Notes under the pieces: model-generated
Told to the model about the DNA's origin: nothing
What the model saw: only the letters and a program-made list of their open reading frames with translations
The model's database searches: none
Position numbers and translations under genes: made by a program
In this document: positions 50,341 through 54,366 of the stretch, one piece after another
Layout of the letters: each line of letters opens with the position of its first letter
How positions within the stretch are numbered: position 1 is the stretch's first letter
Assembly (NCBI GenBank): GCA_964016885.1
Contig: OZ024740.1
Span: 285,076,001-285,140,000, forward strand
DNA: 64,000 bases
Source of the DNA: Eledone cirrhosa
Taxonomy: Eukaryota
Reading direction: 5' to 3'

Positions 50341-51694
50341 GTATACACGCAATGTTTAATAAACATATATTTAGCCACATTGTGAAAATAGATGTATTGC
50401 ACGCTCTCTGCAAGTTAACCACAAACGTGCTGTCTTCAGTTTATACGTATCACCGATTAATGTACTGATATGCACAAATGAACAAAGGTTATACTTGCTG
50501 ATCATCACATTTTTCATAAGTAGTTGTAAGCCTCTCTCACTCTCTTTCTCTCTCACTCTCTCTCACTCTCTCTCTCTCTCTCTCTCAGTGTAGAACAAAT
50601 AAAGTCAAATGCTTAATAAACTGGTAAAGACCAGGTAAAACAAGTCCATCCTGCAAAGAGAACCTTCTTTTGGTGTTATAAGCATAAATATATGTAATCT
50701 AAAATGCACATATGCACATAACACTGAAAGAAAAAAATACTGGTGAATATACTGGTTTTGCTCAGTATATAAACATTAGTAAAGCAAAATAGAAGTGGGC
50801 AAGACACATTACCAGAATGACTGACAACAGATAGACCACTCTCGTCACCTTCTGGACCCCACGAGGTCACAGAAGAAACTGAAGCCACCAGAAGACCAGG
50901 TGGCAAGACAACCTCGAGAGAATTGAAAACTTTTGACCAAGAATGGCTCAAGACAAAGATTTTACAGCTCAAGGAAGGCCTTTGTCCAGCAATGGACTTT
51001 CTAGGGCTGAAGATGATGATTAAAATATCTCCAAAATACAAACAGAATCAAAATGAAATTGTTCACTCACTAAAAGATAAAATTATAGAAATGCACATAA
51101 AAATTTGATTCCTAATTTGATAAAATTTGCATAAAAATGCACATAAAAATTTGATTCCTAAAATAAATAAGAATTATTGATTCCCATTTATACTGGTAGT
51201 GACATAGGCACTTGGCTAAATGACATAATGTCTAAACATCAAAGCAATGCAGTCATTTCATATGTATACTGCAGTGATGGCTGGAGTTCATTCTCACCAG
51301 AACATGAAAGTGTTAGAAACAAATGAGGAGGAAAGAACTTCATATCTAAAACAGGAACTACTACTCACATGTAAAAAAAATCATACATATATATATATAT
51401 ATATATATATATATATAGAATAGAATGAAACGAAATTTCATTTCTCACTCTTAGTATGGCACTTACTTAAATGTAAGTATGTATGTATGTATACGTACAT
51501 ACATATATGTATACAGACGTACAGTAGTATGTATATATATACATACATGCACACATATATATATGCACGTATCAGTTTACCGAACATTTATTATAATGCT
51601 CGGTTTGTTCGTTTGTAAACAAACAAACAGCCTGAATTACGCCATACAGTGTTTAGACAACCACGTCACCTTTTTGTTCAACACTGACACAGGA

Positions 51695-51737
51695 ACGATG
51701 TACTAGTTTCAAGCTTATTAGCTATCATCAGCATCGT
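51695..51737 (-). ncRNA. Type I hammerhead ribozyme
   Basis: ACGATG-CTGATGA-T-AGCT(AATA)AGCT-T-GAAAC(TA)GTA^CATCGT: 6-bp helix I, GUA triplet. Confidence 0.85.
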
Positions 51738-51896
51738 ATACCTTCCTGCCAGATGGTTGAACGTCTGAAAGTATATACGTTTTCGGTGCGCCCAGCCGAC
51801 TGATCTCACTCGATATGCAAATTAGGCTGCTCAGCCGTTAATATGCATAAGGAAAGTATATACTTTCAGACGTTCAACCATCTGACAGGAAGGTAT

Positions 51897-51939
51897 ACGA
51901 TGCTGACGATAGCTAATAAGCTTGAAACTAGTACATCGT
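51897..51939 (+). ncRNA. Type I hammerhead ribozyme (inverted partner, CUGACGA core)
   Basis: acgatg ctgacga tagct aata agctt gaaac ta gta catcgt; differs from the left copy only at the free N7 position. Confidence 0.85.
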
Positions 51940-52598
51940 TCCTGTGTCAGTGTTGAACAAAAAGCTGACGTGGTTGCCGAAACACTGTACGGCGTAATTC
52001 GGGCTGTTTGTTTGTTTACAAACAAACAAACCGAGCATTATAATAAATGTTCGGTAAACCGATACGTGCATATATATATGTGTGCATGTATGTATATATA
52101 CACATGCTACTGTACGTCTATATACATATATGTATGTACATATACATACATACATACTTACATATATATATATATATATATACACACACGCACACATATA
52201 TATTTGTTAACAAAGCTAGTGGAAGAAATATCATTATCATCGTCACTATTTAACTTGGTTAGATGGGTTATCACATTATACTGTTAGACAGGTCAGATGA
52301 GTATCTTGCACATACAATCAATTTTGGGCTTATTTTCTATGGTTGGATGCTTTTCCTAATGCCAACCAATTTACAGGGTTGACTGGGTGCTTTTTTTGTC
52401 ATGGCACCAGCACAACCATTCTACAAGGTTGACTGCATATATATGTGTGTGTGTGTTTGTGTGTGTGTATTTATGTAGATACAATAAACATCCGTAGATG
52501 TGAAAAAGGAAAACAGTGCTAAATCAGGTATGAGAGCTGATATATTATATTATTTATGAACATAAATAAATAATATAAAACTATATATATCTATCTAT

Positions 52599-52834
52599 CT
52601 AGGGCAGGTAAAATTCCCGAGATCCATAGACGAGTTCTCTCCAGCGGCCTCTGTCCCTCATCATTGCCGCAATGTCCTGTGTCTCTAAGAGATCAGTGTC
52701 TGTCCTTAGGGCATCAATATATGTCAACCTCGGTCTCCCTTTTCTAGTGTGTCCGTGCAGGGGCTCCCACAGGAGCACTGAGTGCAGTGTCAACTCTGGA
52801 TGTTGGTGAGCATGTCCAGCTAACCTCAGTCTCC
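52599..52834 (-). mobile_element. RTE-X/RTE-like LINE 3' end (second copy 37830-38100; other RTE-like scraps at 15400-15610, 19545-19910, 28175-28920, 50790-51020)
   Basis: RRLRLAGHAHQHPELTLHSVLLWEPLHGHTRKGRPRLTYID, ending in an ATAG-repeat tail. Confidence 0.75.
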
Positions 52835-52998
52835 GAAGGAAATGTGGTAAGGAACCAGGTGGACCATAACGCACCAAAGTACTCAATACTTGAGGTAGTA
52901 GAGTGGGTAATAGGAACCAGTAAGACCCCGACAGCTGAGCTCAAGCCGTTTCGTCGAAACGGCTTGAGCTCAGCTGTCGGGGTCTTACTGGTTCCTAT
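52835..52998 (-). mobile_element. Hairpin element family A, copy 3 (perfect 44-bp stem, half-hammerhead)
   Basis: 52910-52998 is a perfect palindrome with a 1-nt loop. Each arm reads GAAAC-GGC..GCT-GTC-GGGG. It shares its ~75-bp flank with 22396 and 48604. Confidence 0.75.
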
Positions 52999-53310
52999 AT
53001 ATATATATATATATATATATAAAAACAAATAACGAAACGAAATTAAATTTCGTTTCGCTTCTAACTCACTTTTGTATGACTGACGCTTAAACAATTAAGT
53101 TAAAGTGTACATCTACATATGTATACGGAAGTATTAGTATGCATATAAATACACACATGTATACATATGTATATGTACTGAGTTTTTCACTAGACACTTT
53201 ACAGTGAGTGTCAGCTAGTCTGTATGTAACCACACAGACGGACCGGGTTTTAGAGTCATACGAGTTTTCAAGGAAACACATTTCCTCTATTCTGCAGAGG
53301 GCCAGACAGG

Positions 53311-53355
53311 AATATTGGACTAGTTTCGATGTTATTACATCTCATCAGCAATATT
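53311..53355 (-). ncRNA. Type I hammerhead ribozyme, perfect core
   Basis: AATATTG-CTGATGA-GATGT(AATA)ACATC-GAAAC(TA)GTC^CAATATT: 7-bp helix I, 5-bp helix II, palindromic ACTAGT helix III, GUC cleavage triplet. Confidence 0.92.
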
Positions 53356-53779
53356 TACCCATCTTCCGGCTTCTCTGGAGAATTGTAAAAGCACATATCG
53401 TTATATGCTTTTTCTATGAAAATTAGTAGTGGGTAGACCAATTTGCATAGAACGTGAGTCATTGTACGCACCGGTTCAGCGGAAACGATAAAAACAAATA
53501 ACGAAACAAAATTAAATTTCGTTTCGCTTCTAACTCACTTTTGTATGACTGACGCTTAAACAATTAAGTTAAAGTGTACATCTACATATGTATACGGAAG
53601 TATTAGTATGCATATAAATACACACATGTATACATATGTATATGTACTGAGTTTTTCACTAGACACTTTACAGTCAGTGTCAGCTAGTCTGTATGTAACC
53701 ACACAGACGGACCGGGTTTTAGAGTCATACGAGTTTTCAAGGAAACACATTTCCTCTATTCTGCAGAGGGCCAGACAGG

Positions 53780-53824
53780 AATATTGGACTAGTTTCGATG
53801 TTATTACATCTCATCAGCAATATT
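53780..53824 (-). ncRNA. Type I hammerhead ribozyme, identical second copy
   Basis: Same sequence as 53311-53355, exactly 469 nt away. Confidence 0.92.
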
Positions 53825-54098
53825 TACCCATCTTCCGGCTTCTCTGGAGAATTGTAAAAGCACATATCGTTATATGCTTTTTCTATGAAAATTAGTAGTG
53901 GGTAGACCAATTTGCATAGAACGTGAGTCATTGTATGCACCGGTTCAGCGGAAACGATAAAAACAAATAACGAAACGAACCGGTGCGTACAATGACTCAC
54001 GTTCTATGCAAATTGGTCTACCCACTACTAATTTTCATAGAAAAAGCATATAACGATATGTGTTTTTACAATTCTCCAGAGAAGCCGGAAGATGGGTA

Positions 54099-54143
54099 AA
54101 TATTGCTGATGAGATGTAATAACATCGAAACTAGTCCAATATT
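54099..54143 (+). ncRNA. Type I hammerhead ribozyme in the inverted unit
   Basis: aatattg ctgatga gatgt aata acatc gaaac ta gtc caatatt, read directly on the plus strand. Confidence 0.92.
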
Positions 54144-54366
54144 CCTGTCTGGCCCTCTGCAGAATAGAGGAAATGTGTTTCCTTGAAAACTCGTATGACT
54201 CTAAAACCCGGTCCGTCTGTGTGGTTACATACAGACTAGCTGACACTCACTGTAAAGTGTCTAGTGAAAAACTCAGTACATATACATATGTATACATGTG
54301 TGTATTTATATGCATACTAATACTTCCGTATACATATGTAGATGTACACTTTAACTTAATTGTTTT

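Follow-up and report, generated by a model that had tools for sequence, protein, structure and literature searches.

A 64,000-nt stretch of the Eledone cirrhosa genome (OZ024740.1, 285,076,001-285,140,000; hereafter the window, in whose coordinates all positions are given) contains two neighbouring repeats, element A (51411-52166) and element B (53019-54365), which carry type I hammerhead motifs. Judged from their sequence, both are new members of the known non-LTR (non-long terminal repeat) retrozymes, with predicted catalysis. We consider it quite likely that they represent two sister families copied into TA microsatellites by a Penelope-like reverse transcriptase (RT) and endonuclease, and that the matched changes in their stems record selection on the ribozyme fold. 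Element A is an inverted pair with 314-nt arms, its main and inverted arms overlapping by 10 nt at the inversion junction, and element B consists of two tandem 469-bp minus-strand units plus a 389-nt inverted arm. The arms and tails are as follows, with termini counted from the predicted cleavage site:

51411-51787, minus strand: main arm of element A, a unit truncated at its 5' end that includes the hammerhead and continues to the long terminus (+291); adjoins (TA)n
51411-51467, minus strand: terminal tail of A, about 57 nt, found at a single end; the tail of B is homologous to it
51778-52166, plus strand: inverted arm of element A, stopping at the short terminus (+234); adjoins (TA)n
53019-53979, minus strand: main arm of element B, two tandem 469-bp units, to the long terminus (+299); adjoins (TA)n
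53019-53088, minus strand: terminal tail of B, about 70 nt, at one end only; contains a GAAACGAAATT/ATTTCGTTTC hairpin
53977-54365, plus strand: inverted arm of element B, to the short terminus (+229); adjoins a 233-bp (TA)n run

The retrozyme units are arranged in tandem, measure 420-538 nt and each contain a type I hammerhead motif, with arrays of up to about 31 units. Their GC content is 0.35-0.38, the longest stop-free frame in the element B dimer spans 111 amino acids, a comparison of the window with host Penelope-like element (PLE) proteins gave no similarity, and no transfer RNA was found for the units of either. Element A holds two hammerhead motifs and element B three, and all five have the form CTGAYGA-N14-GAAACTAGT-H:

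51692-51742, minus strand: hammerhead A copy 1, with a CTGATGA core at 51731 and cleavage predicted after 51701; its triplet is GUA and its pair 10.1-11.1 is U·U, 20.4 bits with the HH9 model
51892-51942, plus strand: hammerhead A copy 2, with a CTGACGA core at 51903 and cleavage predicted after 51933
53309-53359, minus strand: hammerhead B copy 1, core at 53348, predicted cleavage after 53318, triplet GUC, 31.8 bits with the HH9 model
53778-53828, minus strand: hammerhead B copy 2, core at 53817, predicted cleavage after 53787
54095-54145, plus strand: hammerhead B copy 3, in the inverted arm, core at 54106, predicted cleavage after 54136

The motif is abundant. A search of the 3.0-Gb genome with the pattern CTGAYGA-N10-22-GAAACTAGT returned 40,348 matches (20,764 + 19,584), as opposed to 11 (5 + 6) for the reversed pattern used as control, and 25,198 of the matches have the exact family A core. 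Further families with the ACTAGT helix were sought with a pattern that excluded the known stems; because this gave 111 matches, of which most are point variants of A or B, the group with this helix consists essentially of A, B and their subfamilies. Units were then compared from cleavage site to cleavage site, homology being expressed as a z score against 300 shuffles with the ribozyme and the CA/TA spacer removed. A and B are colinear and alignable over the full unit, with 60-63% identity between the families and 77-97% among subfamilies. The original prediction, made from the letters of the window, had described A and B as diverged sister families and had tied this to alignable homology beyond the generic hammerhead core; such homology was found outside the ribozyme, with z scores of 15.5-21.2 in the 3' part of the unit and 2.7-5.6 in the 5' part.

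The same prediction held that hammerhead stems had changed while pairing was preserved. All the strings it quoted are present, family A having helix I ACGATG/CATCGT and helix II AGCT-AATA-AGCT, and family B AATATTG/CAATATT and GATGT-AATA-ACATC. When 19 representatives, hand-chosen among distinct ribozyme regions, were aligned and 21 named pairs scored, 93% of cells paired, compared with 30-46% with slid partners, and 9 of the 21 pairs changed on both sides. This count does not exceed the shuffle control, where it was reached in 108 of 500 runs, and cells represent sequences and not events; for these reasons, A was counted directly against B. Among the ten pairs whose position is fixed by the core (six in helix I and four in helix II), four are unchanged and six have changed on both sides, none on one side alone, and five of the six double changes still pair (simulated P of 0.0002 at 39% divergence and 0.003 at 50%). 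The claim of pairing preserved in helices I and II therefore stands for the quoted stems. It had omitted the exception, pair 10.1-11.1, which is G-C in B (six of six representatives) as opposed to U·U or C·A in A, and it had also missed covariation in the distal helix past the helix I loop, where two more double changes bring the total to seven of eight still paired (this helix was read from the same sequences and is less independent). An additional A-U to U-A change separates B1 from B2, and A-U, G·U and U·G states all occur at one helix I pair within family A. Since there are only two deep lineages, the independent events number about 8-10, irrespective of the number of copies.

The unpaired part of the motif behaves differently from the stems. 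All 19 rows agree at eleven positions that are single-stranded or belong to the core, as against an expectation of 0.004 at the 61% background identity; as the rows were picked by the core pattern, for core identity only the contrast between A and B counts. Core variants do occur in young copies, and at U16.1 we found no substitution as against about nine copies at a control T, a comparison in which the numbers are few and context-dependent. Elsewhere in the unit, hairpins occupy corresponding positions, with 10-17 of 22-28 pairs changed on both sides, which is not clearly above slid controls. With stems that changed while pairing was kept, families whose homology is established without using the ribozyme, and 11 identical unpaired or core positions, the matched changes are likely to record selection on the hammerhead fold during propagation. 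The original prediction spoke of selection on RNA catalysis, a wording that we narrow to the fold, as paired changes do not in themselves show catalysis. Matched changes could also arise without selection, if template switching during reverse transcription or replication copied one hairpin arm onto the other. The units are indeed rich in hairpins and the inversion junctions use stem microhomology (including that of helix I in locus L218), but such copying leaves unexplained why the unpaired core and the two tertiary loops are identical and how a single helix I pair passes from A-U through G·U to U·G, and the two lineages already suggest that the unpaired core is kept while neutral unpaired positions diverge. 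We therefore regard this explanation as improbable.

The motif has helices I and II and the core CUGANGA / GAAA / UH of a type I hammerhead. This core is identical in 19 of 19 representatives (picked, as noted, by core pattern), and H17 is A, U or C in every one of them. Loop II, originally read as a fixed AATA, is instead AANA within an invariant U...A, that is, UAANAA on a 4-bp stem, in which U, A, A, A and A are invariant and the third position of AANA is T in 11, C in seven and G in one of the 19 subfamily representatives. Facing it in the HH9 register is a conserved internal loop of helix I, made up of GGUA (5' strand) and UCC (3' strand). The TTCCTGT noted downstream of the core in the prediction is present, but it overlaps helix I, only its TCC is invariant, and other subfamilies have TTCCTTT or TTCCTTG. 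Loop-loop contacts are established for type I hammerheads (PMC6155905; this and all other statements on published work refer to the portions of the cited sources that were available), and the tertiary contact suggested for the AATA loop in the original prediction is plausible here if restated as one between UAANAA and the GGUA / UCC loop. The nearest Rfam model is Hammerhead_HH9 (RF02275), with which the families share a 6-bp helix I with internal loop, a 4-bp helix II with 6-nt loop, and matching loop bases UA, U.C and AA.AA. Helix III differs, being cut down to the 6-nt palindrome ACUAGU alone (duplex energy of -6.2 kcal/mol), and a palindromic helix III is a dimer-type design (PMC4209133). 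In line with this, a constrained double-hammerhead fold lies 0.8-4.4 kcal/mol above the minimum free energy in five of five natural dimers, and it beats two open monomers in three of the five. The predicted unit circles are stably self-paired (z of -6.9 to -11.0 in six of seven units, and -2.3 in one). MicroRNA-like Rfam matches to the CA/TA spacer lie far below cut-off.

The ends of the insertions point to the mode of mobilization. For family B, 18 arrays were sampled, one locus each, from the best matches to the full unit, and for family A, 30 loci. All 29 visible 3' ends of the B arrays fall either at +299 (16 ends) or at +225-230 (13 ends), both ends are present on opposite strands in 12 of the 18 arrays, and the flanks are (TA)n in nearly all. 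The A loci end at +286-291, and 16 of the 30 also have an arm ending at +222-238. These termini are homologous between the families, the long ends preceding the same CGTTT word and the short ends lying near the same TTTAAG word; main and inverted arms differ by a tail of 57-74 nt. The AAATTTCGTTTC block that had been taken for the terminus is one hairpin arm inside this tail; as an exact 12-mer it lies on the sense strand in A but is antisense in B, and it is absent from the inverted arms. Ordinary satellites or DNA elements resembling miniature inverted-repeat transposable elements (MITEs), amplified at the DNA level and with the inverted arms as terminal inverted repeats, would also place both ends in TA and would account for the local higher-order duplication seen in long arrays. 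This explanation is contradicted by an inversion point that varies from locus to locus, and it fits poorly with arms that are unequal, 5' ends that are variably truncated, a tail present at one end only, and loci spread over many contigs; we consider it very improbable.

Penelope-like elements are described as having partial tandems, a 5' copy in inverted orientation, a one-sided tail and a preference for (TA)n (PMC8557442), and in an anole Penelope element the tail corresponds to the gap between two internal RT start sites (PMC11167929). Because the tandem and inverted layout, the one-sided tail and the (TA)n bias of A and B are hallmarks of this class, we favour Penelope-type mobilization. 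The host has several Penelope-like families with RT and GIY-YIG domains in long open frames of up to 1,096 amino acids, and the hammerheads of these families also have a 6-nt palindromic helix III, ACCGGT or AGTACT, some with a U3-A8 core variant. As a separate observation, the autonomous families represented by L148, L149, L154, L160 and related loci have the core UUGANAA (the U3-A8 variant) and helix III ACCGGT; one family of this type has GCAA in place of GAAA and one has a tail of about 67 nt. A and B differ from PLEs in having no open reading frame (ORF), in a tail of 57-74 nt as compared with 30-40 nt (PMC4209133, PMC8557442, PMC11167929), and in a ribozyme that keeps the loop I and loop II bases of canonical type I motifs, which minimal Penelope motifs lack.

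A partner was sought among 130 GIY-YIG loci, drawn from 10,597 first-look candidates (8 of the 130 have no recognisable endonuclease motif). Five nearby matches to A or B, in L142, L158, L159, L289 and L302, proved to be separate insertions, set off by TA- or CA-rich runs. At L072:1008-1207, a Penelope endonuclease fragment (82% to L150) is joined in inverted orientation to a 5'-truncated B2 unit via a short shared word; this single case probably reflects insertion into an old fragment and was not used as evidence. A and B could, alternatively, be solo terminal repeats shed from an autonomous Penelope-like element and not self-propagating families, as Xenopus retrozymes derive from such repeats (bioRxiv 10.64898/2026.07.22.740005). 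Units standing head to tail in runs of up to about 31, uninterrupted by any ORF, speak against this origin, as do the 130 loci, which include no matching autonomous element, and the lineage markers at the level of the array described below, which show that the unit itself propagates. It is thus improbable.

The B arrays also inform on the template. Their mean divergence within the sample is 0.6%. In 4 of the 18 arrays, markers private to the array are fixed in the tandem arm as well as in the inverted one, and in a fifth, single-strand array such markers are fixed across all 14 covering segments, which fits repeated copying of one unit. Ends at the cleavage site were counted with a B1 pattern that misses junctions keeping the T, and no truncation pile-up was found there (two matches, neither a simple truncation, versus 15, about six of them junctions, at a control site 12 nt downstream). 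As synthesis does not stop at the cleavage site, the template was presumably uncut or religated.

We propose the following life cycle. A locus of at least two units would be transcribed, and two hammerheads would pair through the self-complementary ACUAGU of helix III and cut out a unit of 420-540 nt, whose ends, held together by the extended helix I, could be ligated into a circle. A Penelope-type protein would nick (TA)n and begin reverse transcription inside the unit at two constant positions, which lie about 225-235 and 290-299 nt beyond the cleavage site; use of one site per target strand would yield a main and an inverted arm differing by the 57-74 nt tail. Synthesis would then cross the cleavage site and extend for one to many units, and since it runs back across that site the template could be either a circle or an uncut multimer. 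Some long arrays may grow later by local DNA duplication. Helices I and II each pair within one unit, so they would be free to drift by compensatory change, while helix III would stay fixed because it likely must match partner copies. More tentatively, and with less than even confidence, the arrays could be read as a record of rolling-circle reverse transcription, in which a Penelope-type enzyme primes at two sites on a ribozyme-made circle, on both target strands and for many rounds, such that the tandem and inverted arms of a locus derive from one circle. ACUAGU would then act as a pairing code through which A and B cross-activate each other, but not the host elements with ACCGGU or AGUACU. 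If this is true, the young family (0.6% divergence) would make the long-proposed retrozyme cycle directly testable. Contigs from sequencing runs cover a 260-nt ribozyme-proximal stretch in three of four runs, which indicates only that related sequence is present in those runs.

Several results weigh against the proposed cycle or parts of it. The window has no match that reaches the cut-off of an Rfam family, and at a relaxed threshold Hammerhead_HH9 gives 31.8 bits on B and 18-20 on A (18-32 overall) where the cut-off is 52. Family A, the larger family, lacks the G10.1-C11.1 pair, which is expected to weaken its hammerhead. The U·U form is present in at least 25,198 genome copies (those with the exact family A core) and is also found at the base of helix II in one host Penelope family. 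In two of the five dimers the double-hammerhead form is no stabler than two open monomers, and hammerhead core mutants of the anole element still insert in vitro (PMC11167929). None of the 130 GIY-YIG loci is an autonomous element with a terminal repeat homologous to A or B. Finally, in long arrays 0-7 nt separate one unit from another and higher-order duplication is seen, and nine non-fixed variants recur between arrays where 4.7 are expected (5-95% range, 2-8); on account of these differences and recurrences, a single-circle template is not proven.

Some of these points could also be accommodated by the same elements and the same mobilizer with a hammerhead that has a structural or protein-assisted role and rarely cleaves, so that uncut read-through transcripts, and no circle, serve as templates. 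The lack of a pile-up at the cleavage site fits uncut RNA just as well, the insertion of the anole element is unaffected by core mutations (PMC11167929), eight of nine Xenopus dimers showed no cleavage (bioRxiv 10.64898/2026.07.22.740005), and U·U at 10.1-11.1 persists in the copies counted above. Such a ribozyme would nevertheless not be expected to keep its core, its cleavage triplet and its tertiary-loop bases at 61% background identity; 5' truncation would shorten the arrays at each round unless units were regenerated, and coral, mussel and axolotl retrozymes form circles. We regard a rarely cleaving hammerhead as unlikely, albeit deserving of real weight.

A and B resemble the animal non-LTR retrozymes in consisting of short non-coding units of low GC content, repeated in tandem and each with a single type I hammerhead (PMC7229834; bioRxiv 10.64898/2026.07.22.740005), with thousands of copies, a highly self-paired predicted circle and co-occurrence with Penelope-like elements (PMC7229834). 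A close parallel is offered by HHR_Amex1 and HHR_Amex2 of the axolotl, two sister families of which one has U·U at the base of helix II and both do better as dimers; HHR_Amex2, the U·U form, cleaves weakly alone and better as a dimer (PMC7229834). The units described here measure 420-540 nt, at or above the usual 150-450 nt (PMC7229834), and circles and cleavage, reported for those retrozymes, are predicted for A and B. The available text of PMC7229834 and of bioRxiv 10.64898/2026.07.22.740005 describes no inverted arm, one-sided tail or fixed internal ends for retrozymes (the word 'inverted' is absent from the main text of the former, and 'tail' from the latter). Literature on octopus and hammerheads, covered at the level of titles and abstracts with supplements, Repbase and subscription journals outside its scope, contained no such family, and the main text of a 2026 Octopus vulgaris repeat annotation, in its available part, makes no mention of ribozymes (PMC13282606). 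Compensatory change has already been reported in Penelope-associated hammerhead families (PMC4209133), and covariation in itself is expected of a hammerhead family. The new point is a modest one, namely that the insertion anatomy points to a Penelope-type RT running across the cleavage site, and what is useful is the setting, a partly very young group of about 40,000 motifs whose insertion ends appear tied to such an enzyme. How animal retrozymes move and what purpose their ribozyme serves are called open questions (PMC7229834; bioRxiv 10.64898/2026.07.22.740005). Tests of both questions can draw on the defined start sites of A and B, on their two naturally occurring stems (G-C and U·U) and on the candidate enzymes of the host; because the insertion ends of A and B make the life cycle testable, we consider the two families of moderate interest.

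Upstream of the ribozyme, A and B both keep a ATGCAAAT octamer (at 51815, 53448, 53917 and 54006) followed by a TTTTCATA..AAAG..TATA-like block, possibly an internal promoter. A promoter of the small nuclear RNA type was considered and rejected, the motif after the octamer being unlike the upstream elements of the host U1/U2 genes. These genes (L091-L117) share TCAGT at about -57 and, at about -30, an AT-rich block, and the octamer is missing within 500 nt upstream in 13 of 14 of them. Newt satellite 2 reportedly has a promoter arrangement of the small nuclear RNA type.

The window contains further elements. A third hammerhead-like family forms an inverted pair at 48905-49140, with a CTGATGA core, a long T-rich helix II loop and helix III ACCA-C-TGGT; it has about 385 first-look genome candidates and two fixed end sites in (TA)n, and no PLE ORF was found within 1.5 kb at eight loci. 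A lone hammerhead-like core, CTGATGA-GCCC-ACTTA-GGGT-GAAA, lies at 42353 on the minus strand. Another repeat, at 52910-52998 and also at 48471-48660 and 22460-22600, combines an inverted arm with a one-sided tail ending in (TA)n, and element B sits inside the TA run of the copy at 52910-52998. A MITE-like, TA-flanked element with terminal inverted repeats of about 45 nt occupies 54930-55290. An open frame at 52599-52840 (minus strand) resembles, we presume, the C-terminus of a long interspersed nuclear element of the RTE type, and another at 55703-56030 has a PD..D..CP motif, which we take to be typical of the restriction-like endonuclease end of a non-LTR retrotransposon.

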